A stretch of DNA of 64,000 nt, taken from NCBI GenBank assembly GCA_944389745.1, contig CALXNM010000002.1:27389-91388 (forward strand). Reading direction: 5' to 3'. Position 1 is the first letter of the stretch. Each line of letters opens with the position of its first letter. Source of the stretch: an uncultured Clostridia bacterium (GTDB lineage: Bacteria; Bacillota; Clostridia; TANB77; CAG-508). The notes beneath the pieces were generated by a model that was not told where the DNA came from, made no database searches, and saw nothing but the letters and a program-made list of their open reading frames with translations. This document shows positions 3,001 to 32,379 of the stretch, piece by piece. The position numbers were made by a program, and so were the translations under genes.

Positions 3001-4268
3001 TAGTATTACAAGGATTATTAACAGACAGAAATTATGGAACGATAAAAAATATACGTTGCAATTTAGTAGAATCTACAGAAAAATTAAATTTCGATATTTA
3101 TTTTATAACGAGTTTTAATTATGGAACAATAGAAAATTTTATTGTGAACTTGCAAAAGCCATTATTTGTTCAAAAAGGGGCAGCTACGGTTGCATATTAT
3201 AATTATGGAACGATAAAAAATGGCTATGTATATGGGGAGACGATAATGCAGCCAAATGGAGAAACTACGACGAATAGCGCTGGTTTAGTCAGAATAAATC
3301 AAAGAAATGGAATTGTGAAAAATGTATACTCTTTAATAAATGTTAATGGGTCAAATATTATATTTGATAATACTGATAATGCTACAGTACAAAATATATA
3401 TTCAGTTGGTGTAAGTAAAAATGCAGATTTAACACATGGACCTAATATATGTAATAAAAATTCAAAAAAAATATATAATAATTATTATTTTGCAGATGAA
3501 ATCTCTACAAGTGAATTAGAAATAAAAGGAAACATGTTATCTTTATGGGATTCTACATTCCAGAATCAGTTAATAAATAATGATGGGGCTTTTAATGTAA
3601 ATGAGTTAGTAAATGAAGGATATTATCCTCAATTAAATATGTCTGATGTAATGCCAGTACAGGATTATATTAAACTACCAGAAGTTGAAAATGCGGACTT
3701 ACCAGATATACTTTCTACTAAAGTATTAGAACAAGGAACTGATACTGTAAAAGTACAGTTCAGCATAAATAATCCATCAGCTGCACAAATAAGTGAAATA
3801 AAAATACAAAATTTAGATGTAGAAATATTATCACAGGAATACAATAACGGAAAAAGCGCAGTAATAGCAGAATTAAAAAACCCAATAATATGTGTGTCAA
3901 GTTATAATGTAATAAGCATAACCACTAAAGGAGCATTTGGTAGTTCATATACAAGACCATATGATGCTGGAGAAAGAGTAATAAATGTGGATTTATATAA
4001 AGGAATATGGAACATAAATGACTGGAAAGCTATAAATGACTCACCAATAGAAAATTACATGCTAATGGTAGATTTAGACTTTATAAATGAAGGTAATACA
4101 ATAAGCATTTCAAATGTCAATGGAATAATAAATGGAAATGGGCACAGTTTATCAAACGTAAATTTGACAGGAAGTGAAGTTCTTGTAAATCACTTATATG
4201 GAACGTTAGAAAATATATTTATCAATAATTTTAGCCAGATTGATAGTGAATGGCGGAGGTATTGTTAA
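1..4268 (+). CDS. Giant GLUG-repeat cell-surface protein, paralog 1, segment 1. It is 5'-partial because the gene begins upstream of the window. The reading frame breaks near 4240-4250.
   Basis: The ORF 9..4268 continues in frame back to nt 1 (..IDMDSKIEV matches ..INDIDMKSKIEV at about aa 265 of intact paralog 2). It is about 95% identical in protein to paralog 2 over roughly 1,400 aa. It then stops at NNFSQIDSEWRRYC*, while the homologous sequence continues in another frame. Confidence 0.85.
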   Translation, partial: IDMDSKIEVNGEELTYKEFLERLGIIQAEENNKTEETENTIENEIGENNVEEETTTHEENNESNTNKVETNKPTEQEWQEGQWEKPTVSCTDFESGVYTINTNLSVTDRAGVISRGVIFEIYLDGRLNRRVLATQTGNIEITNLQPDTEFEIRGAFYYYDEDGEEQVEEFYNGTVKTKPISALGTIDFSFQNGEIYSNKIELIHLKLNNDLNEEVIKGISRIQVEIGDVAFRLTNDQIDQLKAGEEITYQTSESLTSNSKIKYKITAFDRFGNELKAINNEGETITSKQSPRVSITATKQDVTEVILDVTLNNKDNVSLENYRYEITNQSGDIVKQGILGNNGTASDGSKETLTFNDLDPNGYYQIIIYGDYDLDNGEGKQQNEELGRASFVTRPLASLGYMQVHIDDKEVTQNSMNLGISIDENQTDARLLAILDKVEVVIYDRGKNVESNDGNNDGNSGSESNENAGDSDQGQQGDDNNTPTTETEVKRITFTEEQVQSLKIAEEIQLNLEQLNSNTKYRIDVITSVKQGTVETVVEDKQNLEQIITLKMPAEVQVRNQFVIGTMIDLDIRVEDSDGAVLVDQVRIEVRDKDNKLIDLSEMPTNADYERKTYENLTPNETYRIIVYAPQYNIGSTDATYEADYILKEIEIVTETGISGNLDLIGLEKTPTGKNLIDVASKVNWYEKCFGTDAKYGLNYDENTKILTLGETNGYNKYNYYDLSKYLGQEITISFKARTTDSAYMYISEKGNNDFNNGDYVDYYTINDLTSDWREYVYTVTISKTGYIGFRINSDNTLVEIQDLQAELGNRKTDYEQFQYNYNANVDITVIDARDEIETNDYYIRIYKNDEQIQEIRYEELGEDNEVENVQKTYGIEPDANYRIELLVKITDRYYELDSQEFSTAGSRELKGIFNLNDYLKIQPYGEYIVLDDIDVTGSEYEFGSYNLSFAGRVNFNGNTLTKEIKNSEDNQVQIFTVLDKTGIIENVVFDIKMNNDIEVVLQGLLTDRNYGTIKNIRCNLVESTEKLNFDIYFITSFNYGTIENFIVNLQKPLFVQKGAATVAYYNYGTIKNGYVYGETIMQPNGETTTNSAGLVRINQRNGIVKNVYSLINVNGSNIIFDNTDNATVQNIYSVGVSKNADLTHGPNICNKNSKKIYNNYYFADEISTSELEIKGNMLSLWDSTFQNQLINNDGAFNVNELVNEGYYPQLNMSDVMPVQDYIKLPEVENADLPDILSTKVLEQGTDTVKVQFSINNPSAAQISEIKIQNLDVEILSQEYNNGKSAVIAELKNPIICVSSYNVISITTKGAFGSSYTRPYDAGERVINVDLYKGIWNINDWKAINDSPIENYMLMVDLDFINEGNTISISNVNGIINGNGHSLSNVNLTGSEVLVNHLYGTLENIFINNFSQIDSEWRRYC

Positions 4269-8669: not shown

Positions 8670-8796
8670 AGAAAAATATAAAAAATAAAGTTACAATATA
8701 AAATAATTATGATATACTGTAGAAATAAAAAATATAATATAAACAAGTAGAGTAAATTTTAAGAAGGTTAAATAATTTATGCAAGGAGGTTTGAAT

Positions 8797-9576
8797 ATGG
8801 AGAATTATCCACCATATAGTATCACTGATAAGATGTTAAACTATGTTTCTGAAATAATGGAAAAAATAGGCGAAACAAATTATTTTATAAATTTAAATAA
8901 ATATCCAGAACTAAGAAGAAAAACAAGAATAAAATCAATCCATTCCTCTCTTGCAATTGAAAACAACCAGTTATCATTATTTCAAGTTGAAGATGTAATT
9001 AATGGAAAACTTGTTATAGGAGAACAAAAGGATATTCAAGAAGTAAAAAATGCTTTCAAAGCATATGAAGAGATAGGAAATGTAGATCCATATTCTATTG
9101 AAGATTTAAAAAGAGTTCAAGGAATTATGACTTATCTAATTGAGGAGGATAGTGGAAGATTTAGAAACCATGGAGAAGGTGTTTATGATGTGGACAAATG
9201 TATTTTTATGGCTCCATCTGAAAATATGGTACCGAAACTCATGGATAATTTATTTAATTGGATGAAAGAGGCAAAAAGCTCAGTAAATCCATTAATTTTA
9301 TCTTCAATTTTTCATTATGAATTTGTATTTATTCATCCATTCTCTGATGGAAATGGCAGAACTGCAAGACTATGGCAAACCGTTATTTTGTCTGATTGGA
9401 AAGAGATTTTTAAATATATTTCAATTGAAAGTATTATTAAAGAAAATCAGGAAGAATATTATAAAGCAATAGCCGATTGCAATCAAAAAGGAGATTCTAA
9501 TGAGTTTATAGAATTCATGTTAAAAGTTATAAATAAATCTATAGATGAAGTTATAAATTCAAAAGATGAAAAGTAA
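8797..9576 (+). CDS. fic: Fic/DOC family protein (AMPylation-type Fic domain)
   Basis: Canonical Fic motif HPFSDGNGRTARL. AAGGAGG lies 7 nt upstream of the ATG at 8797. The ORF-track start at 8779 sits directly at the RBS and is unlikely to be used. Confidence 0.8.
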   Translation: MENYPPYSITDKMLNYVSEIMEKIGETNYFINLNKYPELRRKTRIKSIHSSLAIENNQLSLFQVEDVINGKLVIGEQKDIQEVKNAFKAYEEIGNVDPYSIEDLKRVQGIMTYLIEEDSGRFRNHGEGVYDVDKCIFMAPSENMVPKLMDNLFNWMKEAKSSVNPLILSSIFHYEFVFIHPFSDGNGRTARLWQTVILSDWKEIFKYISIESIIKENQEEYYKAIADCNQKGDSNEFIEFMLKVINKSIDEVINSKDEK

Positions 9577-9787
9577 AAACGAATTATTATTTTCTGAAAG
9601 CGAAAAGAAAGTAATAGATTGTATTAGGACTAATATTCTTATAGGAACAAAAGAAATAATACAACAGACTAACATTTCTGATAGAACAGTTAGAAGAATT
9701 TTAAAAAAATTAGTTGAATGTAATATAATTGAATGTGTTGGGACAAATGAAAAAGCTCCAAACAAAAAATATAAAATGGTAGAGTAA
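9566..9787 (+). CDS. Winged-helix HTH domain ORF. It is probably the detached C-terminal domain of the Fic protein.
   Basis: The 73-aa ORF overlaps the Fic stop by 11 nt in another frame. ...DRTVRRILKKLVECNIIECVGTNEKAPNKKYKMV resembles the C-terminal wHTH of Fic-wHTH proteins. The junction is an A-rich tract (aaaagatgaaaagtaaaaac). Confidence 0.55.
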   Translation: MKSKNELLFSESEKKVIDCIRTNILIGTKEIIQQTNISDRTVRRILKKLVECNIIECVGTNEKAPNKKYKMVE

Positions 9788-9881
9788 TGGCAGAGCTATA
9801 AAGATTTTTAAAGAAGGAAAAAATTGCTAATAAAAAAGTGTATAAAAAAATAAAAAATAATGATGCAATATAAAAAAGTTA

Positions 9882-9890
9882 TGATATAAT
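9882..9890 (+). promoter_or_regulatory. Extended -10 promoter (TGaTATAAT) for paralog 2
   Basis: TGnTATAAT is conserved at the equivalent position upstream of paralogs 3, 4 and 5. It implies a 5' UTR of about 420 nt. Confidence 0.55.
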
Positions 9891-9995
9891 GATTAATGAT
9901 AAATATATAAAACAAAAGCAAATGCTTGAAAATCAAGGAAAAAGAGGAAAGGAAAACTAGAAAGAAATGACAAGACTTGAAAGCCGCATGGCTCT

Positions 9996-10019
9996 AGAGA
10001 GAGAGAGAGAGAGAGAGAG
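9996..10019 (+). repeat. (AG)12 dinucleotide microsatellite in the leader
   Basis: Perfect AG x12. The orthologous tracts are (AG)14 at 22047-22074, (AG)11 at 32541-32562 and (AG)12 at 43984-44007. Confidence 0.95.
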
Positions 10020-10102
10020 GTACATTATTAAATAACGGATTCTTCGCAAGAAGAATCCTATTAAGCATGCTTAAAATAAATATATATAGCAAAGGTAAAG
10101 CA

Positions 10103-10169
10103 GGGATAGACTGTATTATTGTAAATGTTTGTAAGAAAAACATTTATGGTGATATGGTCTATCCTTTTT
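10103..10169 (+). terminator. Leader terminator-like hairpin plus U-tract (attenuator candidate), about 150 nt upstream of the start codon
   Basis: Outer stem gggatagac/gtctatcc and inner stem taaatgttt/aaacattta, then TTTTT. It is conserved in all four leaders with compensatory changes (see findings). Confidence 0.55.
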
Positions 10170-10316
10170 GTGTGTGAAAAAAAGTTTTATACACATCAAG
10201 TTGAAAGTGAGAAGACTTTAAATTGCAATAATATCGGCAACAACGATAAATATAAATTGAAATTCTAAAAACGAATGTAAGCAAAAATAATCAAAAGCAG
10301 AAAGGAAAGATGTGAA

Positions 10317-13300
10317 GTGAAAAAGAGAGAAGTTAGAAATAATGAGGCAAAGCAAAATAGAAAAATGCATAGAAGAAAAAATTTAGATAAAAGCCTAAAC
10401 AAAAATAAAACTAATAGAATAAACACAAAGAATCTACCAACTTTTATATTGATAGGTTTACTTCTAATGTTAATTATAATTGCAATAATTTACTATGTAT
10501 TCCTAAGATATGCCCCAGAAATGATAATTACATATAGTGGTTATGCCGTAGAAGGAAAAACAATGGTAGAGAACCTAAAAAATAGTGATTTAAGTAATGT
10601 GAACCCATACTTGGGTTTAGTTGAAGTGCATGAAAACGACCTACTATATAAAAGGATAAATTCATATTACATAGGCGAAGATGACAAAAAAGAAATAGAT
10701 ATAAATTATCCAATATACATTAACGAGGGGAATGCTTTACTAAACATCGGACAAAATACTAGGTTAATAACTGTAAATTACGAAGAAGTAGAAGGATATC
10801 CAGACTTCATGATGGCAGATGGAGTAATGTATAACGGAGCTGATATAACAAGAGCAGATGGAAACAAGTACATATTCTTAAAGAGCGAAGACGAAATTTA
10901 TACAAATGTAGGAAAGATAAATATAAGTACAGGATTAAATGAGTATGAGATTAAAGAATTCAGTAATATATATTTTACAGAGGATTATATAGCATACTAT
11001 GAGATGGAAGACGGAACTAATGCCAGCGACGGTAATGATGAAAATTCAGGTAATGCACAAAATAGAACAAATAATGTGCAAAATTGGTACATGCAATACA
11101 AGAGAATAAATGATATAGATATGAAGTCTAAGATAGAAGTTAATAATGAAACTATGTCCTACAAAACATTCTTAGAAAGATTAGGAATTATTCAATCAGA
11201 AGAAAACAATAACAGCAATGAAATTGTAAATGAAACGAACGAAATAGATGAAACAGCTGAAAACAATGTTGAAGAAGACAACATAACACATCAAGAAAAT
11301 AATTCAAATAAAAACAAAGTAGAAACAAATAAGCCAGATGAACAAAAATGGCAAGAAGGACAATGGGAAAAACCAACAGTAAGCTGTACAGATTTTGAAA
11401 GTGGAGTATACACAATAAGTACCAACCTTTCAGTAACAGATAAAGCAGGAGCAATTTCAAGAGGAGTAATATTTGAAATATACTTAGATGGAAGATTAAA
11501 TAGAAGAGCACTAGCAATACAAACTGGAAACATAGAGATAACAAACTTACAACCAGATACAGAATTTGAAATAAGAGGAATATTCTATTACTATGATGAA
11601 GAAGGAGTAGAACAGGAAGAAGAATTTTACATAGGAACAGTAAAAACAAAACCAATAAGTGCATTAGGAACAATAGACTTTAGTTTCCAAAATGGAGAAA
11701 TATACTCAAATAAAATAGAATTAATACACCTAAAATTAAACAATGACTTAAATGAAGAAGTAATAAAAGGAATATCAAGAATACAAGTAGAGATAGGAGA
11801 TGTAGCATATAGATTAACAAACGACCAAATAGACAAATTAAAAGCAGGGGAAGAAATAACATATCAAACAAGTGAAAGCTTAACATCAAATAGCAAGATA
11901 AAATACAAAATAACAGCATTTGATAGATTCGGAAATGAACTAAAAGCAATAAATAATGAAGGAGAAACAATAACATCAAAACAATCACCAAGAGTAAGCA
12001 TTACAGCAACAAAACAAGATGTAACAGAAGTAATACTTAATGTGACATTAAACAATAAAGATAACGTAAGTTTGGAAAACTATAGATATGAAATAACAAA
12101 CCAAAGTGGAGATATAGTAAAACAAGGAATATTAGGAAACAATGGAACAGCAAATGATGGAAGTAAAGAAACATTAACATTTAATGACTTAGACCCAAAT
12201 GGATATTATCAAATAATAATCTATGGTGATTACGACCTAGATAATGGAGAAGGTATGCAACAAAATGCAGAACTAGGAAGAGCAAGTTTTGTAACAAGAC
12301 CACTAGCTTCACTAGGATATATGCAAGTACATATAGATGATAAAGAAGTAACACAAGACAGTATGAATTTAGGCATAAGTATAGATGAAAACCAAACAGA
12401 TGCAAGATTGCTTGCTATATTAGATAAGGTAGAAGTAGTTATTTACGACCAAGGTAAGAATGTGGCTGATAATGGTGGAAACAATGATAGCGAAAACGAC
12501 GGTAGCAATGGTAATAACGATGGAAATGCTGACAATGAAGAAAGCACAGGTAGCAGCGATAATGGTGACAACCAAAGTGGCAACAGTGATTCCGAAAATA
12601 ATAACAGCATAACCACAGAAACCGAAGTAAAAAGAATAACATTCACAGAAGAACAAGTACAAGCATTAAAAATAGCCGAAGAAGTAGAATTAAATCTAGA
12701 CCAACTAAATTCAAACACAATATATAGAATAGATGTAATAACTACAGTAAAACAAGGAACTGTAGAAACAGTAGTTGAAGACAAACAAAACTTAGAAGAA
12801 TTAATAACACTAAAAATGCCAGCAGAAGTACAAGTAAGAAACCAATTTGTAATAGGTACTATGATAGATTTAGACATAAGAATAGAAGATATAGATAATG
12901 CAGTATTAACGGACCAAGTAAGAATTGAGGTAAGAGATAAAGACAATAAATTAATAGACTTAAGCGAAATGTCAACAAATGCAGACTATGAAAGAAAAAC
13001 ATACGAAGACCTAACACCAAACGAAACATACAAAATAATAGTATATGCTCCACAGTATAACATAGGAAGTACAGATGCAACGTATAAAGCAGATTATATC
13101 TTAAAGAAAATAGAAATTGTGACAGAAACAGGAATAAGTGGTAACATAGACTTAATAGGATTAGAAAAAACACCAACAGGAAAGAACTTGATAGATATGT
13201 CATCAAAAGTAAATTGGTATGAATATTGTTTTTTAAACTGGGAAAATCCATACGGCATTAGTTATGATGAAGATACGAAAATACTTACAATAGGAGGTTC

Positions 13301-16300
13301 GGTAGGAAATTTAAATAGAGCCTATTATAATTTAGTGGAATACTTAGGACAAGAAGTAACCATTAGTTTTAGGATAAAAAGTGAAGAAGATACACCATTA
13401 TATATAGTTGAAAAGGATAATGATGATTCGGAAAATACTGCATATACTATATATCAAACAATAACAGATTTATCAACCGAGTGGCAAGAATATAGTTATA
13501 CAGTTACCTTAAGTAAAAGTGGATATATTGGATTTATTGTTGCCAACTATTCGAAAGTGCAAATTGAAGATCTACAAATTGAATTAGGAAATAAAAAAAC
13601 AGATTACGAAAAATTTCAATACGATTACAACGCGAACGTTGGTATAACAGTAAATGATGAAAGAAATGAAATAACAACGAACGATTATTACGTAAGAATA
13701 TACAAAAACGACGAGCAAATTCAAGAAATTCGTTATGAAGAACTTGGAGAAGATAATGAAGTAGAAAATGTACAAAAAACATACAATATCGAACCTGATG
13801 CAAACTATAGGATAGAACTACTTGTAAAAATATCAGATAGATATTATGAACTAGACTCACAAGAATTTTCAACAGAAGATTCGAAAGAGATAAAAGGAAT
13901 AATAAATAAAAATGATTTCTTAAAAATACAACCGTATGGTGAATATATTGTGTTAAATGACATAGATTTATCAAGTAATAGTACTGACCAATATCGATTT
14001 GGAAATGGAGATTTGCCATTTGAAGGAAAAATTAATTTTAATGGAAACACTTTGCAAAGAAATGTAGAAAGTTCAAGAAGTTCGATATTTCATGTATTAG
14101 GAAACGATGCAATATTAGAAAACTTAGTATTTGACATAAAAATGAATAATGAAATTGCTGTGTCTATGAGTGGACTTGTAAATACTAATAGGGGGACAAT
14201 AAGAAATATACAAATCAATTTGTTAGAATCTACGGAAAAACAAAATTTTGATGTTTTTTTAATAACGAATTCGAATTACGGCTTGATTGAGAACTTTGTA
14301 GTTAATCTTGACGTACCACTTTATGTCTATAGAGGAGCTGGGGTTACGTACTCAAATAATGGAATTATCAGAAATGGGTATTTATATGGAGAGAATATCA
14401 AACTGCTTAGTTCAGAAAATATTACTAGTGATGTGGGAGGTGTAACCAGATATAATAACGGAAATGCGGTAATAGAAAATGTATATACTTTGGTAACTAT
14501 TGATTCTGTATACAATAATCAAACAAAAGGAAATATTACTGTTGTTAACCAAAACAATGCAACTGTTCAAAATGTATATTCAGTGGGAATTGGCGAAAAT
14601 ACTAACTTAACCAGAGGACCAAATGTATATTTAAAAACATCAAAAAAAGTATACAATAATTATTATTTCGCAGATGAAATATTTACTAGCGAATTAGAAA
14701 CAAAAGGAAATAAATTATCGTTATGGGACGCACAATTTCAAAATCAATTAATAAATGGTGATGGGGCGTACACTGTAGATGAACTTGTAAATCAAGGGTA
14801 CTATCCTCATTTAAATATGCCAGATGTAATGCCGGCACAAGAGTATATAGAGTTACCGGAAGTAGAAGACGCTGATTTACCTGATATATTATCCACAAAA
14901 GTTTTAGAACAAGGAACTGATATGGTAAAAGTACAGTTTAGTGTTAATAACCCCTCTTCTGCACAAATTAATGATATACAAATAGAAAATTTAGATGTGG
15001 AAATCTTATCACAAGAATATAGTAGTGGAAAAAACACAGTAATAGCAGAACTAAAAAATCCAGTAATATGTGTATCAAGCTATGATGTACTAAGTATAAG
15101 TACAATAGGAGCATTTGGAAGCTCATATAAAAGACCATATGAAGAAGGAGAAAGAACAATAAATGTTGACTTATATAAGGAAATATGGAGCGTAAATGAC
15201 TGGAAAGCAATAAAAGATTCACCAACAGAAAATTATATGTTAATGGAAGACCTAGATTTTATAAATGAAGGAAACACAGTATCTTTAGGAACAATAAATG
15301 GAATATTAAATGGAAATGGACACAGTGTATCTAATATATATTTAACAAGCGATACCCATATCATAACAAACCTATATGGAACATTAGAGAACTTATTTAT
15401 TAACAATTTCAACCAAGATGGAAACTATGGTGGGGGCTTGGTGGGGGATGCTCTTATTGGTTCTGTAGTTGACAATGTTCATATGAGGAACGTGAGTATT
15501 GTGAAAACAGAAAGTAGCAGTGTCGGAGGACTGTTGGGACACGCAAATTATAGTGACATAAAAAATTGTTCATTAAATGATATTCAAATAGAAACAAAAG
15601 GAAATGTGAGTAACATTTTTATAGGAGGGATGGTTGGTCAGATTGATTACACTTCTATGGAAAACTGCTATGTGAGAGGATTACAGGTAAAAGATGCTAA
15701 AGGTGTGGATGCTGGAATTGGTGGAGTAGTAGGTTATGGTTCTGGAACAAATGATATAAAAGATTGTTATGCAGAAGGAACAATAACTTCGGTTAATATA
15801 AATGTAGGTGGGATTATTGGACAATTATATTCTGGAGAAATAAAAAATTGCTATTCAAAAGTAAAAATTTCAACAACAAATAGCAATGTTGGAGGAATAG
15901 TGGGAATTTTCTCTGGAAGTGATGTAAACACTATATCTAACAATTTGAGTATTGGTACTATATATACAACTTCAGGATTAAGTACTTTAAATAGAATAAT
16001 AGGAAATAGTGAAGATACAGTTGATAGTAATTATGCATATGAAAATCAATTGTTAAATGGATATGTGAATAGAGATAGTAAAGGAGCTATACTATTAAGT
16101 GTAGAAGAAATCTCAGAATTAGAACTAGGAGATAGTTATAATTCTGATAAAGAGAAAAATGGAGTTTTACCAAAATTATACAACACAGAAGGAACAGAAT
16201 TATTACCAAATCAAGAAGCTATCTATGTAGATGATAATATATCAAATAGTGGGGCAAACTTAGTAGTAGAAAGTATAGAGGCAATAAAGCCAAATAGTTC

Positions 16301-19300
16301 AGAAGCAGAAATATCAGTAAGAATAATTAATCCGGAAGAAGTAGAAATAACAGAAATAGAGATAGAAGATATGTTAAGCTCAGTAACAAGAAATGTAACA
16401 CAAAATGGAATAACAAGTATAACAGTACGTGCTACACCAACAAGATATTATGATAGCTATAAGCTGACTGGTATAAAATACAAAGTGGATACTTTAGAAG
16501 AAGAACAATCAAAAGAAGTAGAAAACGAAATACAGGTGCAATTCTATAAGGAAATATATACATATGAAGATTGGCAAAGCATAGAAGCAGATACTTATCA
16601 GAATTATAGATTAATGGCTGACATAGACTTTACAGGTAAAACAAATATAAAAAATAATATAAATGTAAATAGACTAGAAGCAGAGAACAATTTGTATACA
16701 CTAAAAAATATAGAATTAGAGTTTAACGAACAAAATACAGGATTAATAAATAATGTGAAAACAAGTATTAAAAATATTGGATTTGAAAATATAACATTAA
16801 CTAACTCAGTTAATTCAGGAAATTATTTTGGATTGATTGCGACTAACACAGGAGATTCTGTAAACTTAAAATTTACAAAAGTAAAAATTTATGGTTATGG
16901 AATAGATTATGTGGGAATTATTGGTGGAACAATCTCGGGCTATATAAGAGATATTGAAATTAAAGAAATTGAAATTTATGGAAATAATTATACAGGTGGC
17001 TTAGTTGGATATATGGACGTAAATGAGTATGAAGAAGTAGATAATATTATAGGCAATCATATTACTGTACAAAGTTCTGGAAACTTTGCAGGTGGGATAT
17101 TTGGCAGGCAAGATTCTAATGTTTCATTAGAAACCACTGTTCAAACCAACAATTTGGAAATAAATAATTCAAATATTACAGGAAAAGATTATGTGGGGGG
17201 GCTATTTGGTTATGTGCAATATGGAAGTTTAAAAAACTTGGAAACGAACAAAACAAACATTTCTGGAAGTTCGTATGTAGGAGGAATATCGGGATATTTC
17301 AATTCAACAGATGGAAATTATTATAGGTATTATTTTCAAATCAATTCATCAACCATAAATGGAAGTGGATATTACATAGGCGGGATAACAGGATTTATGA
17401 ATCATGGAGAAACAAAGTATTTAGTTGTAAGTGGTTCTACAATAAATGCTCCTTCAGTAAGTTCACAATACATTGGCGGAATTACCGGTGGTTTTTTATG
17501 GGAGCATATGTGTGATATTCAAGTAGTTAATACTATAATAAGTAGTAATGGAATTAACGTAGGCGGAATTGGAAATGTTATTGGTGATGGCTCCGGTGGA
17601 GTATATTATGGATATGTTGATAATACTACTATTCAAGGAAATTATAATGTTGGTGGTGTGATGGGAAAAACAAAGTATAGTTATACCAGTCATATATATA
17701 TAAATGCTGACATAAAAGCAAATTCATCAGCAGCAGGAGGTGTAGTAGGTTTTTTGTCTAATGCTAATATGACTTCGCTATATGATGTCATTCGTGTTGA
17801 TGATACAATGGTATTGAATAGTTCTATATCATCTCCGACAAATGCAGGAGGCTTGATTGGCGATATAGCAAAAGAAATTTATAGAGACCAATCGTTCTAT
17901 TACAACAATTACATTGATGCAGATGTGACAAGCGAAAATACTTCAACAGGGTCACTAATAATAGGAGGAAGACCAGACGAAAACACATATATAGAAAATA
18001 CATATGTGTATAGATATAGTAGTTTAAATGGAAATTACGTATATGCAACAAATGATAATATTGAAGATGACCAATATTTAGTAAGAAGTGATTTAGATGT
18101 TCAAAGTACATTTTCTAGTACGATTGGATTAGGAACAACATACTGGAGCTATGAGTCATTAGCAGAAGGAAAATATCCAAAAATAAAAGATAGTTATTTA
18201 TACCACCCAGAATTACAAACTGGTGTGGACCTACCAACAGATCCAGAAATTTCATCAATAAACGCACTAAGTGTTGGAGATGAAATTAGCGAAGATAGTG
18301 CTAATGAGATAGGACCTAGCACAAACAATATAGCAGATAAAAATGGAATATCAACGCAAAGTGTAGAATCATTACCAAGTTATAAAGTGTATCCAACAAA
18401 GGTAAATGAAATAAACATAGACTTTAGCAATATGCCAGAAGGAGTAAGTTTCACGTACTACGTAAATGGTGATGAAAAAGAGACTAATGAATTAACTAAG
18501 AGAACATATACATTTAAATACAACTATCGAGACACATTAGAAATTAAACTAACAAATGACACAGACGAAGAAACAATCACAATAACACCAGACGATGTAA
18601 GAAGTGAAGCAAGCTTGGCAGGTAGCAACAACGTATACTTATTAGGTACAAACTTATACATTAATGGAGAATTACAACAAGGAGAATATGTAAATGTATA
18701 TGGTAGTTATGCACTAAATAGTAGTGGACAAATCTTGGATATAGAAACAAAGCAATTAACAAGCACAAATACTACAAATGAAACAAGTGAAAACTCAGGA
18801 ATAAATGCAACTAAAGCAAATGACTCAGCTAGTGATATAGCAACATCAAACGATGAACTTGAAGTGATTACAACCTCATTAAAACAAACAACAACACCAC
18901 TTCACACATATGCTTATAAAGGAAACAACATAGAAGTTTATGGAACATATAGCACAGTAGATGGCAATGTAAAATCACAAATATATAATGTAAGAAACGG
19001 ACAACTTTCTGCAATATCAAACAATGTAGATATGAAAATTGAAAACAGTATAATAGATAACTACAACGATAAAGAGTATCAAACAATATTAAATACTTCA
19101 GGAAAATTAGTTGATTTAAAAGAACAACTACAATATCCAAATAACTTCTTAAGTAACAATATAAAGCAAATAGTACAAAATACAGATGCAGAAAAAACAG
19201 AAATGCTAGTATTGTATAACACAGGCAAAGTAATTGTATTTAATTATGTAACAGGAAATGTAGTATATGAAAACGACGAAAAAGCGGATTCAGGCTTAGT

Positions 19301-19904
19301 AAGTTATCTAACAAGAAGTTTCTCAAATATATGGAGTGATTATGAAGATAGGTGGCAAGAATATGCTAAGAGTAAAGAATTAGAAACAAAACTTGCGGAA
19401 TTATCAGTGGAAGAGGCAATACAAAAAGCATCAAACAACAGTGAGATAAATGCTATAAGCAATAATATAGCTGGTAATGTAAATACAAACCAAAGCAATA
19501 ATGCTACTAACAGTATCAGCACTAACAATACAAATAATGCAAGCGGAAGCTCAAGCACTGACAATGCTAGCTCAAGTACCAGCACAAATACTATAGCAGA
19601 TAACAGCTACATTACAGTCTACAATGCAGATACAGGAGAGTATGAAGTATACAGCGAAGAAGAAATATTAAATGGAGAAGATGAAAATCCGGTATCTGAA
19701 ACAGAAAAAATAAAAGAAAATGGACTAGAAGGAGTATATGGATATGACACAAAAGAAGAAACAAAGCCACAAGCGAATGGAGCAATAATAGTAATCTCAA
19801 TAATAGCTGTAGCTGTAATAGCATTAGTTGTCTTAAGAAAAGTAATTGTAAAAAATAACAACAAAAAAGAGAAAACAAACAAAGACAATAGTAAAATTAA
19901 ATAG
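10317..19904 (+). CDS. Giant GLUG-repeat cell-surface protein, paralog 2. It is intact at 3,195 aa. It has an N-terminal signal-anchor TM helix, Ig-like and CBM-like domains, two GLUG/beta-helix cassettes and a C-terminal TM anchor.
   Basis: Uninterrupted ORF with a GTG start 10 nt after AGGA. It is paralogous end to end with the 44302..53880 gene. N-terminal TM helix: FILIGLLLMLIIIAIIYYVFL. C-terminal TM helix: AIIVISIIAVAVIALVVL followed by RKVIVKNNNKKEK. Confidence 0.9.
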   Translation: MKKREVRNNEAKQNRKMHRRKNLDKSLNKNKTNRINTKNLPTFILIGLLLMLIIIAIIYYVFLRYAPEMIITYSGYAVEGKTMVENLKNSDLSNVNPYLGLVEVHENDLLYKRINSYYIGEDDKKEIDINYPIYINEGNALLNIGQNTRLITVNYEEVEGYPDFMMADGVMYNGADITRADGNKYIFLKSEDEIYTNVGKINISTGLNEYEIKEFSNIYFTEDYIAYYEMEDGTNASDGNDENSGNAQNRTNNVQNWYMQYKRINDIDMKSKIEVNNETMSYKTFLERLGIIQSEENNNSNEIVNETNEIDETAENNVEEDNITHQENNSNKNKVETNKPDEQKWQEGQWEKPTVSCTDFESGVYTISTNLSVTDKAGAISRGVIFEIYLDGRLNRRALAIQTGNIEITNLQPDTEFEIRGIFYYYDEEGVEQEEEFYIGTVKTKPISALGTIDFSFQNGEIYSNKIELIHLKLNNDLNEEVIKGISRIQVEIGDVAYRLTNDQIDKLKAGEEITYQTSESLTSNSKIKYKITAFDRFGNELKAINNEGETITSKQSPRVSITATKQDVTEVILNVTLNNKDNVSLENYRYEITNQSGDIVKQGILGNNGTANDGSKETLTFNDLDPNGYYQIIIYGDYDLDNGEGMQQNAELGRASFVTRPLASLGYMQVHIDDKEVTQDSMNLGISIDENQTDARLLAILDKVEVVIYDQGKNVADNGGNNDSENDGSNGNNDGNADNEESTGSSDNGDNQSGNSDSENNNSITTETEVKRITFTEEQVQALKIAEEVELNLDQLNSNTIYRIDVITTVKQGTVETVVEDKQNLEELITLKMPAEVQVRNQFVIGTMIDLDIRIEDIDNAVLTDQVRIEVRDKDNKLIDLSEMSTNADYERKTYEDLTPNETYKIIVYAPQYNIGSTDATYKADYILKKIEIVTETGISGNIDLIGLEKTPTGKNLIDMSSKVNWYEYCFLNWENPYGISYDEDTKILTIGGSVGNLNRAYYNLVEYLGQEVTISFRIKSEEDTPLYIVEKDNDDSENTAYTIYQTITDLSTEWQEYSYTVTLSKSGYIGFIVANYSKVQIEDLQIELGNKKTDYEKFQYDYNANVGITVNDERNEITTNDYYVRIYKNDEQIQEIRYEELGEDNEVENVQKTYNIEPDANYRIELLVKISDRYYELDSQEFSTEDSKEIKGIINKNDFLKIQPYGEYIVLNDIDLSSNSTDQYRFGNGDLPFEGKINFNGNTLQRNVESSRSSIFHVLGNDAILENLVFDIKMNNEIAVSMSGLVNTNRGTIRNIQINLLESTEKQNFDVFLITNSNYGLIENFVVNLDVPLYVYRGAGVTYSNNGIIRNGYLYGENIKLLSSENITSDVGGVTRYNNGNAVIENVYTLVTIDSVYNNQTKGNITVVNQNNATVQNVYSVGIGENTNLTRGPNVYLKTSKKVYNNYYFADEIFTSELETKGNKLSLWDAQFQNQLINGDGAYTVDELVNQGYYPHLNMPDVMPAQEYIELPEVEDADLPDILSTKVLEQGTDMVKVQFSVNNPSSAQINDIQIENLDVEILSQEYSSGKNTVIAELKNPVICVSSYDVLSISTIGAFGSSYKRPYEEGERTINVDLYKEIWSVNDWKAIKDSPTENYMLMEDLDFINEGNTVSLGTINGILNGNGHSVSNIYLTSDTHIITNLYGTLENLFINNFNQDGNYGGGLVGDALIGSVVDNVHMRNVSIVKTESSSVGGLLGHANYSDIKNCSLNDIQIETKGNVSNIFIGGMVGQIDYTSMENCYVRGLQVKDAKGVDAGIGGVVGYGSGTNDIKDCYAEGTITSVNINVGGIIGQLYSGEIKNCYSKVKISTTNSNVGGIVGIFSGSDVNTISNNLSIGTIYTTSGLSTLNRIIGNSEDTVDSNYAYENQLLNGYVNRDSKGAILLSVEEISELELGDSYNSDKEKNGVLPKLYNTEGTELLPNQEAIYVDDNISNSGANLVVESIEAIKPNSSEAEISVRIINPEEVEITEIEIEDMLSSVTRNVTQNGITSITVRATPTRYYDSYKLTGIKYKVDTLEEEQSKEVENEIQVQFYKEIYTYEDWQSIEADTYQNYRLMADIDFTGKTNIKNNINVNRLEAENNLYTLKNIELEFNEQNTGLINNVKTSIKNIGFENITLTNSVNSGNYFGLIATNTGDSVNLKFTKVKIYGYGIDYVGIIGGTISGYIRDIEIKEIEIYGNNYTGGLVGYMDVNEYEEVDNIIGNHITVQSSGNFAGGIFGRQDSNVSLETTVQTNNLEINNSNITGKDYVGGLFGYVQYGSLKNLETNKTNISGSSYVGGISGYFNSTDGNYYRYYFQINSSTINGSGYYIGGITGFMNHGETKYLVVSGSTINAPSVSSQYIGGITGGFLWEHMCDIQVVNTIISSNGINVGGIGNVIGDGSGGVYYGYVDNTTIQGNYNVGGVMGKTKYSYTSHIYINADIKANSSAAGGVVGFLSNANMTSLYDVIRVDDTMVLNSSISSPTNAGGLIGDIAKEIYRDQSFYYNNYIDADVTSENTSTGSLIIGGRPDENTYIENTYVYRYSSLNGNYVYATNDNIEDDQYLVRSDLDVQSTFSSTIGLGTTYWSYESLAEGKYPKIKDSYLYHPELQTGVDLPTDPEISSINALSVGDEISEDSANEIGPSTNNIADKNGISTQSVESLPSYKVYPTKVNEINIDFSNMPEGVSFTYYVNGDEKETNELTKRTYTFKYNYRDTLEIKLTNDTDEETITITPDDVRSEASLAGSNNVYLLGTNLYINGELQQGEYVNVYGSYALNSSGQILDIETKQLTSTNTTNETSENSGINATKANDSASDIATSNDELEVITTSLKQTTTPLHTYAYKGNNIEVYGTYSTVDGNVKSQIYNVRNGQLSAISNNVDMKIENSIIDNYNDKEYQTILNTSGKLVDLKEQLQYPNNFLSNNIKQIVQNTDAEKTEMLVLYNTGKVIVFNYVTGNVVYENDEKADSGLVSYLTRSFSNIWSDYEDRWQEYAKSKELETKLAELSVEEAIQKASNNSEINAISNNIAGNVNTNQSNNATNSISTNNTNNASGSSSTDNASSSTSTNTIADNSYITVYNADTGEYEVYSEEEILNGEDENPVSETEKIKENGLEGVYGYDTKEETKPQANGAIIVISIIAVAVIALVVLRKVIVKNNNKKEKTNKDNSKIK

Positions 19905-20131: not shown

Positions 20132-21805
20132 ATGGAGTTTAATGGCATAGGAATAGGAGAAAGTGATTTTAAAAGTTTACGAATAAAAAATAATTATTTT
20201 ATAGACAAAACAATGTATATAAAAGATATAATAGATAACCAAAGTAAAGTAATATTAGTAACTAGGCCACGTAGATTCGGAAAAACATTAAATATGAGTA
20301 TGCTAAGATATTTTTTTGATTGCAATATAAAAAACTCAAAAGAATTATTTGAAGGACTAAAAATAATGAAGCAAGAAGAAAAATACACATCAAAATTAGG
20401 AACGTACCCATGCATATATTTAACATTAAAGGATTTAAATGTTAGCTCATATGAATATATGTTAATGCAAATGAAAACAGTAATGATGGAAATATTTTTT
20501 GAAAAAAGGTATTTGCTTGAAAGTGAAATTTCAGAAGGAGAAAGAGAAATATATAATAAAATGATGGCAGCCAAGGTTAATGAAATGGAACTTATAAATA
20601 GTGTAAAAATATTATCAAAAATGCTTTATAATTATCATAATAAACCAGTAATGCTATTTATAGATGAATACGATGTTCCAATTCAAGCAGCGTATGTAAA
20701 AGGATATTATGAAAAAGCAATAGAATTTCTAAAAACATTTTATGGAACAACATTTAAAGACAACCAATACTTAGAAAAAACAGTATTAACAGGAGTAAGC
20801 AGAGTAGCAAAAGAAAGTATATTCAGTGGAGCAAATAACTTTAAAGTATTTACGGTACTGGACAATGAATTTGCAGATGATTTTGGAATAACAAGCGAAG
20901 AAATGGATAAGGTAATAAAAGACTTTAACGTAAAAGATGAAAAAGACGAAATAAAAAAATGGTATGATGGGTATAGAATAGGAAATGTAGAAGGCATATA
21001 CAATCCATGGAGTATTTTAAATTATCTAACAGATAAAGAATTAAAACCATATTGGGTAAATACTAGTTCAAATGACTTAATAAAATTAACATTGAAAAAC
21101 TCAGTAACAATAAAAGAAAAAATGGAAAAACTATTAAAAGATGAAGAAATAGAAGTACCAATAAATCTAGAAACAATAATAGTAGGAATAGAAGAAAATG
21201 AAGATAACATCTGGGGCTTAATGTTAGGAACAGGGTATTTGAAAGTAGTAGAAGTGGTAAACTTAGCAGAAGGAATATATAAAGTAAAAATACCAAATTA
21301 TGAAATAAAAACACTATTTCAAGACATAGTAAGAGACTGGTTCAGAAATAAAGTACAAGGAAATGACTTAAGAAGTATATTAAAAGATTTAGTAGAACTA
21401 AATTTAGACGAATTCCAAATGAAATTTAGAGTACTAGTAAGAGAAATGTTTAGTTATATGGATGTAGGAGAGAACACAGCAGAAAATTTCTACCATGCAT
21501 TTGTATTAGGAATGTTAGTAGGACTAAGAGACACATACTATGTAAATTCAAATAGAGAATCTGGATTTGGAAGATACGACATCATGTTAGAACCACATGA
21601 CAAAAACGGAAATAGCTTTATAATAGAATTTAAAGTAGCAAACAACTTCGAAGATGAAACAATAGACGAAGTAATAGAAAGCGCAAAAAAACAAATAGAA
21701 GAAAAAGGATATGAAAGCAATTTAAGAGAAAGAGGCTTCAATAACATAACAAAAATGGTATTTGCATTTAAAGGAAAAGAATGCAAAATGGAAGTAGTAA
21801 AATAA
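20132..21805 (+). CDS. AAA-ATPase-like (PF09820-type) protein with a C-terminal PD-(D/E)XK nuclease-like domain
   Basis: The N-terminus MEFNGIGIGESDFKSLR..YFIDKT..TRPRRFGKTLNMSML is typical of this family. AAGGAGGA RBS. 557 aa. Confidence 0.75.
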   Translation: MEFNGIGIGESDFKSLRIKNNYFIDKTMYIKDIIDNQSKVILVTRPRRFGKTLNMSMLRYFFDCNIKNSKELFEGLKIMKQEEKYTSKLGTYPCIYLTLKDLNVSSYEYMLMQMKTVMMEIFFEKRYLLESEISEGEREIYNKMMAAKVNEMELINSVKILSKMLYNYHNKPVMLFIDEYDVPIQAAYVKGYYEKAIEFLKTFYGTTFKDNQYLEKTVLTGVSRVAKESIFSGANNFKVFTVLDNEFADDFGITSEEMDKVIKDFNVKDEKDEIKKWYDGYRIGNVEGIYNPWSILNYLTDKELKPYWVNTSSNDLIKLTLKNSVTIKEKMEKLLKDEEIEVPINLETIIVGIEENEDNIWGLMLGTGYLKVVEVVNLAEGIYKVKIPNYEIKTLFQDIVRDWFRNKVQGNDLRSILKDLVELNLDEFQMKFRVLVREMFSYMDVGENTAENFYHAFVLGMLVGLRDTYYVNSNRESGFGRYDIMLEPHDKNGNSFIIEFKVANNFEDETIDEVIESAKKQIEEKGYESNLRERGFNNITKMVFAFKGKECKMEVVK

Positions 21806-21877: not shown

Positions 21878-21886
21878 TGTTATAAT
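21878..21886 (+). promoter_or_regulatory. Extended -10 promoter (TGtTATAAT) for paralog 3. A second TATAAT lies at 21891-21896.
   Basis: Motif position and leader homology. Confidence 0.45.
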
Positions 21887-22046
21887 AGTTTATAATTGAA
21901 GCATACTTGTTTTGTAAAAGCAATCTGCAAAAGCTAAATTAGATTTAAGACAGATATATAAAACATAAGCAAATGCTTGAAAATCAAGGAAAAAGAGGAA
22001 AGGAAAACTAGAAAGAAATGATGAAGTCTGAAAACCGCATGGCTCT

Positions 22047-22077
<31 letters not shown>

Positions 22078-22157
22078 CATTATTAAATAACGGATTCTTC
22101 GCAAGAAGAATTCTATTAAGCATGCTTAAAATAAATATATATAGCAAAGGTAAAGCA

Positions 22158-22224
22158 GGGATAGACTGTATTACTGTAAGTGTTTGTAAGAAAGCACTTA
22201 TGGCAATATAGCCTATCCTTTTTT
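22158..22224 (+). terminator. Leader terminator-like hairpin plus U-tract (paralog 3 copy)
   Basis: gggatagac...gcctatcc with inner stem aagtgttt/aagcactt, then TTTTTT. Confidence 0.5.
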
Positions 22225-29294: not shown

Positions 29295-31494
29295 TTGGGC
29301 TTCTTTACATAATTTTAATGTGATAAGTTCTGAAATTAATAGTGGAGGAACAAATGTTGGAGGTGTTTGTGGAGGAAACTCGAGCAATAGTACAAGTTGT
29401 GACCTTTTGACAGGTTACATAAGTGATACAAAAATAAATGGAGCAAGTAATGTAGGAGGTGCGATAGGATATACTAGTTATGCAGGCGTTAATCATGTAT
29501 ACATCAACGCAAACATAAAAGCGAATAGTAACAATGTAGGAGGAGTAGTTGGATACATGGATAATTCTAATATGACAGAATCTAGATATGGAATATATAT
29601 TAAACAAACGATGTTATATGACACAAAAATAGATGCATTAACTAATGTGGGTGGTCTAATTGGAGATATGGCAAAAGAAATATTTAGAGATAAATCATTT
29701 TACGACAATAATTACATAGATGCAGATGTAACAAGTGACAATACTTCTACAGGTTCATTAATAATAGGTAGTAGACCAGAGGAAAATGATTATATAACTA
29801 ATACTTATGTGTATAAATATAGTACTTTAAATGGAGATTATGTATATACAACAAATGATAATGTGGAGGATGACCAGTATTTAGTAAGAGTTGATTTAGA
29901 GAATCAAAGCACATATTCTAGTAAAATTGGTTTAGGAACAAACACATGGAGTTATACACCTTTAGAGGAAGGAAAATATCCAAAACTAAAGGATGGAAGA
30001 ACTTATCATCCAGAGATACAAATAGGTGTTAACTTACCAACAGATCCAGACATTACGATAATAAATTCATTAAGTAGCGAGGATGAAAATGATAATTTTA
30101 ATAATAGCACATTAACCGAAAACGGAATAGCAACTCAAGATTTAGAAATATTACCAACTATAACATTTTACCCAGTATCAGTAGAAGAAATAAACATAGA
30201 CTTTAGCTCGGTTCCAGAAGGAGCAAGCTTCACATACTACGTAAATGGAGAAGAAAAAGAGAAAATTGAATTAACTAAGAAAACATATACTTTTAGATAT
30301 AATTATAAAGATACGATTGAGATAAAATTATCAAATGGACAAGATGAAGAAACAATTACAATTAATCCAGATGATGTAAAAAGTGAGGTAAGCTTAGTAG
30401 GAGCAAACAATGCATACTTGCTTGGCACAAACTTATACATTAATGGAGAATTGCAATCAGGAGAGTATATAAATGTGTATGACGGATATGCATTGAATAG
30501 TAGTGGACAAGTTGTGGATATTGCAAGTCAAGAAACATCAGGAGAAGCGGTTACAACCACATTAGAAGAAACGGCAAAACCACTTCAAACGTACAGTTAC
30601 AAAAATAGCAATATAGAAGTTTATGGAACATATAGCACAGTAGATGGCAATGTAAAATCACAAATCTACAATGTAAGAAATGGACAGCTATCAGCAATAT
30701 CAAACAATGTAGATATGAAAATAGGAAACAGTATAATAGATAATTACAATAATAAAGAATATCAAACAATATTAACTACAGATGGAAATTTAGTTGATTT
30801 AAAGGAACAACTACAATATCCAAACAATTTCTTAAGTAGCAACATTAATCAAATAGTACAAAATACAGATGCAGAAAGTCCAGAAGTGATGGTGCTATAC
30901 AATACTGGAAAAGTAATTGTGTTCAACTATGTAACTGGTCAAGTTACATATGAAAATGACGAAAAAGCAGATTCAGGCTTGGTGAGTTACTTAACAAGAA
31001 GTTTTTCAAGCATATGGAGTGACTATGAAGATAGGGGGCAAGAATATGTTAAGAGCAAAGAGCTAGAAGCAAAACTTGCAAAATTACCAGTAGAAGAAGC
31101 AATGCAAGAGGTAGTAAACAACAATAAAGATAATGAAAGTGGTAATACAGCAGGAGGTGTAAATGCTAGCAGTAACAATACAAGTTCAAACAGCAACACA
31201 ACAGCAGACAATAATTACATTACAGTATACAACGGAGATACAGGAGAATATGAAGTATACAGTGAAGACGAAATACTAAATGGAGAAGATGAAAATCCAG
31301 TATCAGAAACAGAAAAAATAAAAGAAAATGGACTAGAAGGAGTATATGGATATGACGCAAAAGAAGAAACAAAACCACAAGCAAACGGAGCAATAATAGT
31401 TGTTTCAATAATTGCAGTTGCAATAATAGCATTAGTTATTTTAAGAAAAATAATTGTGAAAAATAACAGGAAAGAAAAAAGGTTAAAAAAATAA
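29275..31494 (+). CDS. Giant GLUG-repeat cell-surface protein, paralog 3, segment 2. It carries the C-terminal third and the TM anchor. The ORF track starts it at GTG 29320.
   Basis: Translation from about 29275 (..GLFGSGDWASLHNFNVISSEINSGGTNVGGVCGG..) aligns with paralog 4 (IGGITGQTYW..SIGGVCGE). The C-terminus is ANGAIIVVSIIAVAIIALVILRKIIVKNNRKEKRLKK. Confidence 0.8.
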   Translation, partial: GLFGSGDWASLHNFNVISSEINSGGTNVGGVCGGNSSNSTSCDLLTGYISDTKINGASNVGGAIGYTSYAGVNHVYINANIKANSNNVGGVVGYMDNSNMTESRYGIYIKQTMLYDTKIDALTNVGGLIGDMAKEIFRDKSFYDNNYIDADVTSDNTSTGSLIIGSRPEENDYITNTYVYKYSTLNGDYVYTTNDNVEDDQYLVRVDLENQSTYSSKIGLGTNTWSYTPLEEGKYPKLKDGRTYHPEIQIGVNLPTDPDITIINSLSSEDENDNFNNSTLTENGIATQDLEILPTITFYPVSVEEINIDFSSVPEGASFTYYVNGEEKEKIELTKKTYTFRYNYKDTIEIKLSNGQDEETITINPDDVKSEVSLVGANNAYLLGTNLYINGELQSGEYINVYDGYALNSSGQVVDIASQETSGEAVTTTLEETAKPLQTYSYKNSNIEVYGTYSTVDGNVKSQIYNVRNGQLSAISNNVDMKIGNSIIDNYNNKEYQTILTTDGNLVDLKEQLQYPNNFLSSNINQIVQNTDAESPEVMVLYNTGKVIVFNYVTGQVTYENDEKADSGLVSYLTRSFSSIWSDYEDRGQEYVKSKELEAKLAKLPVEEAMQEVVNNNKDNESGNTAGGVNASSNNTSSNSNTTADNNYITVYNGDTGEYEVYSEDEILNGEDENPVSETEKIKENGLEGVYGYDAKEETKPQANGAIIVVSIIAVAIIALVILRKIIVKNNRKEKRLKK

Positions 31495-31803: not shown

Positions 31804-31805
31804 AA

Positions 31806-32370: not shown

Positions 32371-32379
32371 TGATATAAT
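32371..32379 (+). promoter_or_regulatory. Extended -10 promoter (TGaTATAAT) for paralog 4
   Basis: Same motif and context as 9882-9890 and 43815-43823. Confidence 0.5.

Follow-up and report, generated by a model that had tools for sequence, protein, structure and literature searches.

The window analysed here is the whole of a 64,000-nucleotide (nt) stretch of DNA from an uncultured Clostridia bacterium (GenBank assembly GCA_944389745.1, contig CALXNM010000002.1, positions 27,389 to 91,388), which carries several copies of a giant surface-protein gene. Each of the four giant genes with a start in the window (copies 2 to 5) has in its leader a hairpin of 27–29 base pairs (bp) followed by a run of five or six U residues, and upstream of the hairpin each leader contains a short open reading frame (ORF), here called the uORF, with a dinucleotide repeat, (AG)n, inside it. 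We analysed the hairpin and the repeat as parts of a candidate switch for the giant genes. The features on which the argument depends are as follows, with OFF and ON denoting the predicted states.

10317 to 19904, plus strand: putatively controlled gene, copy 2, 3195 amino acids (aa); its product has a membrane anchor at the N-terminus and contains a GLUG motif
22314, 32771 and 44302, plus strand: starts of the paralogues, copy 3, copy 4 (GTG start, pseudogene) and copy 5
10102 to 10169, plus strand: terminator-like hairpin and U-tract of the copy-2 leader; 29 bp, loop GUAAGAA, UUUUU and then GUGUGUG
22157 to 22224, plus strand: terminator-like hairpin (22157–22220) and U6 of the copy-3 leader
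32648 to 32715, plus strand: terminator-like hairpin (32648–32712) and U5 of the copy-4 leader
44093 to 44160, plus strand: terminator-like hairpin (44093–44157) and U5 of the copy-5 leader
9967 to 10035, plus strand: copy-2 uORF as it now reads (OFF frame), MTRLESRMAL(ER)4YIIK and stop
22018 to 22086, 32512 to 32574 and 43955 to 44023, plus strand: equivalent uORFs of copies 3, 4 and 5
9996 to 10019, plus strand: (AG)12 tract inside the copy-2 uORF, hypervariable, read as (ER)n
22047 to 22074, 32541 to 32562 and 43984 to 44007, plus strand: (AG)14, (AG)11 and (AG)12 tracts of copies 3, 4 and 5
10026 to 10035, plus strand: double stop TATTAAATAA, with TAA at 10029–10031 and TAA at 10033–10035 and the third frame open; kept in all leaders of this type
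10020 to 10177, plus strand: read-through (ON) frame of copy 2, GTLLNNGFFARRILLSMLKINIYSKGKAGIDCIIVNVCKKNIYGDMVYPFCV and stop, about 55 codons, ending at TGA 10175–10177

The initial annotation had placed a terminator-like hairpin at 10103–10169, and RNA folding bears out both the structure and its position. The copy-2 RNA from 10102 to 10166 is predicted to form 29 unbroken pairs around a 7-nt loop at −34.3 kcal/mol, compared with −11.6 ± 2.5 kcal/mol for shuffled sequences (z = −9.1; 0 of 200 shuffles equally good), and the equivalent hairpins of copies 3–5 reach −32.6 to −38.1 kcal/mol (z −6.1 to −8.1). With a stable hairpin and U5–6 immediately after it on the transcribed strand, the element has the layout of an intrinsic terminator. 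Folds of the minus strand are weaker by about half (−16.4 to −24.5 kcal/mol), and seven of the pairs are G–U, which brings the complementarity of the arms as DNA down to 78%; the hairpin is a feature of the plus-strand RNA. The differences in inner stems and loops that the annotation quoted between copies are correct, and the selection on RNA structure that it deduced from them is matched by true covariation across 16 distinct homologous hairpins. In an alignment for which the second hairpin type was fitted to the first by hand with N-padding, 95.1% of cells pair, as against 39–51% when partners are slid by 1–3 columns; 8 pairs and 26 cells have changed on both sides, and the observed score was reached by none of 500 shuffles. 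The U-tract is invariant throughout this alignment. Distances from hairpin to start codon agree with those given before for copies 2 (about 150 nt, as also in copy 5) and 3 (94 nt), but the distance in copy 4 is 59 nt and not about 90.

The annotated coordinates do not delimit the full control unit, as the uORF and (AG)n tract lie outside and upstream of them. The uORF ATGs (9967, 22018, 32512 and 43955) stand 29 nt 5′ of the tract and about 135 nt 5′ of the hairpin, and the tract itself lies about 85 nt 5′ of the hairpin in the window leaders. A conserved GGTACAYTATTAAATAA right after the tract supplies TAA in two frames, giving peptides that end in EVHY or YIIK; across the four leaders these OFF stops fall 13–17 nt after the tract and 67–74 nt before the hairpin (67–71 nt in copy 2). 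The third frame continues across a smaller structure, hairpin 1, and then across the 5′ and 3′ arms of the terminator hairpin, to a TGA 11 nt past the stem; this stop is carried by the conserved GYGTGTG that follows the U-tract, read as GYGTGTGA. From the tract to the hairpin's 3′ end, the copy-2 read-through frame has 0 stops, as against 5 and 6 in the other two frames. Its counterparts stop at TAG 22209–22211 in copy 3, 9 nt short of the stem's 3′ end, at 32721–32723 in copy 4 and at 44166–44168 in copy 5. From ATG 9967 the read-through frame is reached only if n is 10, 13 or 16. All four window copies have their ATG in the short frame, and one AG unit gained or lost puts it in the long frame.

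On this basis we propose, with a probability of about 0.78 and by analogy with a pilus switch of Streptococcus gallolyticus described below, that the hairpin and U-tract are the terminator half of a stochastic, phase-variable attenuator gated by the (AG)n tract in the uORF. Transcription would start at a conserved TGATATAAT promoter, and a ribosome would initiate at ATG 9967 and translate across the tract, where slipped-strand changes of n would shift it among three frames. In two of these it would stop at the TAA codons of 10029–10035, the hairpin would form and polymerase would terminate at the U-tract, leaving the 9.6-kb gene OFF. In the third (n = 10, 13, 16 and so on) it would translate about 55 more codons through both arms and stop at the TGA 11 nt past the hairpin, so that the stem would be kept melted and polymerase would continue into the gene, the ON state. 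Each paralogue would have its own switch, and all four switches in the window would be OFF. Translation of the uORF and termination at the hairpin are what we infer from this layout, and suppression of termination by the passing ribosome is proposed from the same S. gallolyticus precedent. The earlier suggestion that the terminator-like element serves on/off control of the giant genes by attenuation gains support as a reading.

Two other ways in which such a leader could act were rejected. An RNA-only effect of repeat length does not fit the predicted terminator fold, which is the same for n = 9–16 and leaves the tract unpaired with the terminator at every n. Amino-acid attenuation of the trp/his type does not fit either: the (ER)n or (HT)n run is set by the repeat, there is no regulatory codon run, and no competing antiterminator fold is predicted.

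Relatives were collected from contigs encoding matches to the giant protein and from a scan of species-representative genomes with a trimmed N-terminal protein alignment. The N-terminal domain is rare (19 matches in 5.8 billion clusters), and the searches yielded 26 further loci in about 9 metagenome-assembled genomes (MAGs) of uncultured Clostridia, including MAGs from chicken gut. The window-like arrangement, which we call type B, is present in 21 leaders from at least 7 uncultured gut Clostridia, drawn from the window, European Nucleotide Archive contigs and MAGs. All 21 have a uORF with (AG)n or (AC)n in which two frames stop 5–51 nt after the tract and 29–125 nt before the hairpin, and in all 21 the third frame stops inside the hairpin or 11–101 nt beyond it. 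Their hairpins fall into five mutually unalignable groups (the window type, the L007/L023–L030 type, L035, L012 and L037), yet every stem is 23–29 bp long and is followed by T5–8. Repeat numbers in relatives and in the paralogues of a closed 1.70-Mb MAG chromosome range from n = 8 to 17; at least ten copies of the family lie on this chromosome, of which three have a leader switch and seven carry the repeat inside the giant ORF.

The open read-through frame is not due to chance. From the tract to the 3′ end of the hairpin it contains 0–1 stops in 20 of the 21 leaders, and each other frame contains 3–9; the exception is the short leader of L012, with 2 stops as against 3 and 3. Dinucleotide shuffles gave a frame open to the hairpin midpoint with P = 0.003–0.09 per locus, rising to 0.19–0.31 for two short leaders. 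Counted from the second early stop, the hairpin lies 69, 72, 75, 78, 114 or 120 nt away, in every case a multiple of 3. Conservation of the frame ends at the loop: copy 3, L002 and the first L020 module (L020a) lack 1 nt of the loop, and their stop is thereby moved into the 3′ arm, which suggests that it is reaching the hairpin that matters and not the end of the peptide.

Several relatives elaborate on the type B layout. In L020 (OZ006978.1, 1680–2345), two complete modules of uORF, repeat and hairpin stand in series before one giant gene, the first with (AC)12 at 1756–1779 and a hairpin at about 1903–1966, the second with (AG)16 at 2150–2181 and a hairpin at 2267–2331; both are in the ON frame, and by its sequence the tandem looks like an AND gate. 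In L035, the stop of the read-through frame overlaps the giant-gene start codon (UAAUG, 2421–2425), an overlap by which translation of the main ORF could also be coupled to that of the ON frame. In L037, two copies of an element resembling repetitive extragenic palindromes (gtaggggcgattttaatcgcccg...) lie within AT-rich repeats (gaataatgaa...) between the terminator and the giant gene (1990–2350).

The gap from hairpin to gene is 170–480 nt in L012 and L037, room enough for a promoter, and this is what favours the view that the hairpin ends a separate short transcript, a small ORF or small RNA, and that the giant genes use promoters of their own downstream. In the window, however, a scan found no promoter-like site on the plus strand between 10170 and 10317, and in copy 4 only 55 nt separate the U-tract from the GTG start at 32771. 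The UAAUG overlap in L035 also speaks against a separate transcript, which moreover leaves the constant arrival of one frame at the hairpin unaccounted for; we give it little credence. A leader attenuator is favoured over both an RNA-only effect and a separate promoter because the fold is constant for n = 9–16, no promoter-like site was found and the copy-4 spacer is so short.

A second arrangement, type A, has no hairpin, and there the giant ORF carries this ATG and (AG)n within its own N-terminus, MRKAKNRMAL(ER)nATLLNN-LPVFILVG... (L006, L009, L014–L019, L033 and L039). The seven type A copies of the closed MAG have n = 11, 11, 13, 8, 14, 8 and 17, and one is in frame; judged by its sequence, type A would be classical translational phase variation. 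In a third group of distant homologues (L010, L011 and L013) the giant gene is second in an operon and has no such leader. The start region of the window uORF is homologous to the true giant-ORF start in type A relatives. That homology of the uORF start and repeat to a real N-terminus, together with a mean identity of 77% among the four window leaders, would suit a leader that is merely duplicated DNA, a neutral remnant of an ancestral 5′ coding region with an in-ORF repeat. Neutral decay is at odds with the compensatory changes in the stem, with the same logic being built from hairpins that cannot be aligned, with indels that are all in frame and with similar modules before unrelated surface genes in other metagenomes, and we regard it as the least probable of the alternatives.

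Control of a different kind would operate if the terminator were overcome by a trans-acting factor or ligand (a LoaP/NusG paralogue, an ANTAR-type protein or a riboswitch) and the repeat and uORF were incidental. Processive antitermination typically targets long leaders with terminators before long operons, which counts for this possibility, as does hairpin 1, which is conserved and unexplained. Searches for such a system came back empty. Rfam 15 covariance models had no match at gathering score anywhere in the window, and at relaxed E-value the region 9577–10330 returned only chance-level matches (E ≥ 0.34) to microRNA and small nucleolar RNA models, so that the Rfam comparison advised by the initial annotation assigned the leaders to no family. 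The protein antiterminator that it suggested looking for has no counterpart among the 17 window ORFs scanned with Pfam, in which no NusG/KOW or ANTAR domain was found, and no alternative antiterminator fold is predicted. A trans-acting factor would also leave the open frame, the in-frame-only indels and the paired stops unaccounted for, and we consider it highly unlikely.

The tract is hypermutable. The copy-4 leader has n = 11 in the window, 12 in L003, 13 in L004 and 11 in L005, over about 350 nt that are otherwise 100% identical between the window and three independent metagenome assemblies of the same species (L005 with an N-filled scaffold gap). The n = 13 of L004 opens the predicted ORF of 71 aa across the hairpin, one that a gene caller had already called. 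ON modules number six: L004, both of L020, L021, L025 and L027. A query of public protein sets with the hypothetical ON peptide of copy 2 returned 22 distinct peptides of 41–88 aa, nearly all ending in YPFCV or TLMAI or close variants (a few are about 12 residues longer, and P0041 is truncated); their (ER)n runs vary by whole ER steps, as the frame rule predicts. Copy 4 (32771–42171) is a real pseudogene, with a frameshift after ...EKPTVSC near 33800 and a second break near 37750; an identical 353-aa product is found on 7 contigs from other samples, and the copy-4 leader repeat still varies (n = 11, 12, 13). A short-read contig with an identical Fic gene (L160, BRZ_MC) ends about 40 nt before the copy-2 repeat; assembly seems to break off at leaders like these, and switches of this kind are therefore probably under-represented in short-read MAGs.

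The remaining parts of the window leaders are a likely promoter and hairpin 1.

9882 to 9890, plus strand: extended −10 element TGATATAAT, the likely copy-2 leader promoter
21878 to 21886 (TGTTATAAT), 32371 to 32379 and 43815 to 43823, plus strand: equivalent promoter elements of copies 3, 4 and 5
10037 to 10058, plus strand: hairpin 1 of copy 2, GGATTCTTC-GCAA-GAAGAATCC
22092 to 22113, 32580 to 32601 and 44025 to 44046, plus strand: equivalent hairpins 1 of copies 3, 4 and 5

The extended −10 element is kept in the four window leaders and in relatives L002 and L007, and at 9882–9890 it is likely to be the leader promoter, although a simple −35/−10 scan did not call it there. Between promoter and uORF, the leaders of copies 3–5 have about 55 nt (ATTGGAGACAnACTTGTTTTGCAAAAGCAAGCTGTAAAAG...) that are missing from copy 2; these extra segments (21887–21945, 32380–32440 and 43824–43880) contain a small hairpin-like CTTGTTTTGCAAAAGCAAG. 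Hairpin 1 is real as first described, with a GCAA loop that is ACAG in copy 5, and it begins 2–6 nt after the OFF stops. Both alignable leader types have it, with different stems (ATTCTTC/GAAGAAT and ATGCTTY/RAAGCAT) and varied tetraloops. It is absent from the leaders of L012, L035 and L037, and is therefore not essential to the switch logic; we speculate that it might serve for pausing or synchronisation and in this way let the ribosome catch up with polymerase. The palindrome ttaaGCATGCttaa does lie at 10061–10074 and is degraded in copies 4 and 5, as had been noted, but its proposed role as a protein-binding site did not stand: the GCATGC palindrome is perfect in only 3 of 10 related window-type leaders and lies inside the read-through frame.

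Several observations weigh against a ribosome-gated attenuator. No copy in the window is in the ON frame, and the Shine–Dalgarno sequence of the window uORF is weak (GAAAGGAAAA, about 11–13 nt before the ATG), although that of relatives L012, L067 and L071 is strong. The only locus with direct polymorphism across samples, copy 4, is a pseudogene, and repeat counts taken from assemblies rather than reads could hold errors. The switch model does not account for hairpin 1. Transcription–translation coupling is weak in Bacillus subtilis, and close pursuit of polymerase by a ribosome cannot be assumed in Clostridium. Finally, a simple terminator scan built on a consensus of a short G+C-rich stem missed the hairpin, its sole call being a minus-strand site at hairpin 1; we take this as a limit of the simple scan rather than as disproof of termination.

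The stem itself is AU-rich and, at 29 bp, unusually long, properties that would also suit RNase III. The most serious rival reading makes the long hairpin a target of RNase III or an element of RNA stability, where cleavage or protection of a 27–29-bp duplex would set mRNA fate, possibly under the control of a ribosome in the read-through frame. Stems of 23–29 bp in all five hairpin families exceed what a terminator needs, the absence of a terminator call points the same way, and there is a precedent in the 5′ untranslated region of Haemophilus influenzae hmw1A, where a hairpin that RNase III cuts is indispensable to phase variation by simple sequence repeats (SSRs) (PMC12721329). Like the window genes, hmw1A, a large adhesin gene, has a repeat transcribed in its 5′ leader together with a long leader hairpin. 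The hmw1A repeats, however, make up an arm of the hairpin, and the level of expression follows their number by way of RNase III (PMC12721329), whereas the window repeat is coding, is unpaired with the hairpin and has a predicted output that depends on n mod 3. RNase III also has no need of the T5–8 that directly follows every hairpin, or of a U-tract that is invariant in the alignment, and we consider this reading unlikely.

The attenuator model has its closest parallel in the pil1 and pil3 pilus loci of S. gallolyticus, where GCAGA repeats in a leader-peptide gene alter peptide length (Danne 2014, PMC3894217). There, expression is low when the peptide ends 39 bp before a stem-loop terminator and high when it ends within or after the terminator; the effect needs translation, and deletion of the terminator locks expression ON (PMC3894217). 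As there, the window leaders have a promoter-proximal ORF containing a simple repeat with a unit length not divisible by 3, a repeat number that varies among samples (here at one locus, copy 4, from assemblies) and a stem-loop terminator between leader and structural genes, with surface structures as the target and switching that would be stochastic. Short frames stop well before the terminator in both (39 bp in pil1, 67–74 nt in the window) and long ones within it or just after; in all 21 type B leaders one frame ends at least 28 nt before the hairpin and one within or beyond it. The differences are that the unit repeated here is a dinucleotide (AG or AC) instead of the pentanucleotide GCAGA; that one frame in three is ON here, whereas both out-of-frame states are ON in pil1; and that the repeat here has two dedicated TAA stops and a further hairpin after it. 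The host, too, is an uncultured Clostridium with a switch of its own on each of 4–10 giant paralogues per genome, and tandem double modules and in-ORF versions of the repeat occur, the latter in one genome with leader switches. Judged by the repeat unit and the GLUG-motif giant gene rather than by alignment, the two systems have no common descent, and the likeness is mechanistic. The pil1 mechanism was shown genetically, whereas the window system is known from sequence, in which its anatomy, the conservation of that anatomy, the repeat polymorphism and the existence of ON alleles are demonstrated. In the paper library searched, phase variation by a leader-peptide repeat and terminator was found described only for S. 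gallolyticus.

Other known switches share single elements with the window. The leader ORF of Escherichia coli pyrBI runs through an intrinsic terminator, and a close ribosome blocks the hairpin, with uridine triphosphate sensed through polymerase pausing. The read-through frame likewise extends through its terminator, but the input here would be a heritable change of frame, and the leader has neither regulatory codons nor nucleotide-sensing pause tracts. In Clostridioides difficile, cwpV encodes a large surface protein that is turned ON and OFF stochastically through a leader terminator, by site-specific inversion between inverted repeats. The initial annotation drew this comparison, and the idea of a stochastic leader-terminator switch fits in spirit; the invertible element does not carry over, as the variable element here is a dinucleotide repeat. 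An invertible-DNA switch was rejected: in 9577–10330 the sole inverted repeat is the hairpin itself, and the annotation had likewise reported no flanking inverted repeats. Phase variation by SSRs inside coding sequences, as in Neisseria opa or the in-ORF (AG)12 of Mycoplasma mycoides M.MmyCI (PMC3498834), shares with the window a slipped-strand repeat that shifts the frame, and the type A loci L006, L014–L019 and L033 would work in the same way. The window repeat, by contrast, belongs to an upstream ORF distinct from the gene, and a shift there would lead to termination or read-through of transcription and not to a truncated protein.

A scan of metagenomes for GCTCT(AG)8 returned, among the matches listed, mostly unrelated microsatellites, with four relevant loci (L052, L058, L067 and L071). 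Three of these, on metagenome contigs with a G+C fraction of 0.29–0.30 (L052 from human gut; L067; L071), have similar modules before unrelated surface genes: a Shine–Dalgarno-like sequence, an ATG, a peptide MKTVAAL(ER)n or ...KTLAAL(ER)n, two frames closed by stops, and a third that reaches or abuts a hairpin with T5–8. The genes that follow encode a signal-peptide protein and a pilin-like protein (MKKQNNGITLIALVITIIVLLILAG...). In L058 the repeat lies within a large ORF. The unit of uORF, dinucleotide repeat and terminator may tentatively be seen as a portable, modular switch widespread in uncultured gut Clostridia, a view that we hold at somewhat less than even odds. We raise it because such units, with a shared junction GCTNT-(AG/AC)n and AL(ER)n or AV(HT)n peptides, stand before unrelated genes (L052, L067 and L071), because they are stacked in L020 and because they coexist with in-ORF versions in one genome.

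Other features of the giant genes and their surroundings were recorded. Copies 1 and 3 are each split into two ORFs, of 1419 and 1451 aa (break at 4240–4268) and of 2326 and 724 aa (break at 29294–29320), with no obvious homopolymer or repeat seen at the break points; these splits may be sequence errors, pseudogenes or programmed breaks. A different accessory gene precedes each of three giant genes: Fic/DOC at 8779–9576, AAA-ATPase_like with PD-(D/E)XK at 20132–21805, and AAA_14 with DUF4143 at 42417–43694; a gene of this last kind stands before the giant gene in relatives L002 and L009 as well. Between copies 3 and 4, on the minus strand (31573–32135), lies a toxin–antitoxin-like pair made up of a 109-aa DUF4258 protein and a 76-aa zinc-ribbon protein with weak MqsA/YokU-like matches.

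The window system thus follows the logic of pil1 without homology to it, and extends that logic to uncultured gut Clostridia rather than adding a new principle; the comparison suggests that the same logic arose independently or spread in these bacteria. In the window and its relatives, the setting is a family of 3,000-aa surface proteins, each member with such a switch before it. Its rule would be readable, as n mod 3 would predict from metagenome reads alone which giant surface proteins are expressed. Placement in the leader suggests an economy, in that an OFF transcript ending at about 270 nt would spare transcription of 9.6 kb, and the relatives form a natural series from in-ORF repeat switching to leader attenuation. 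For annotators, the point is that leaders recorded as 'non-coding' may be coding in one frame. If the unit is indeed a portable switch, it would give these bacteria combinatorial, low-cost antigenic variation of 10-kb adhesin genes.

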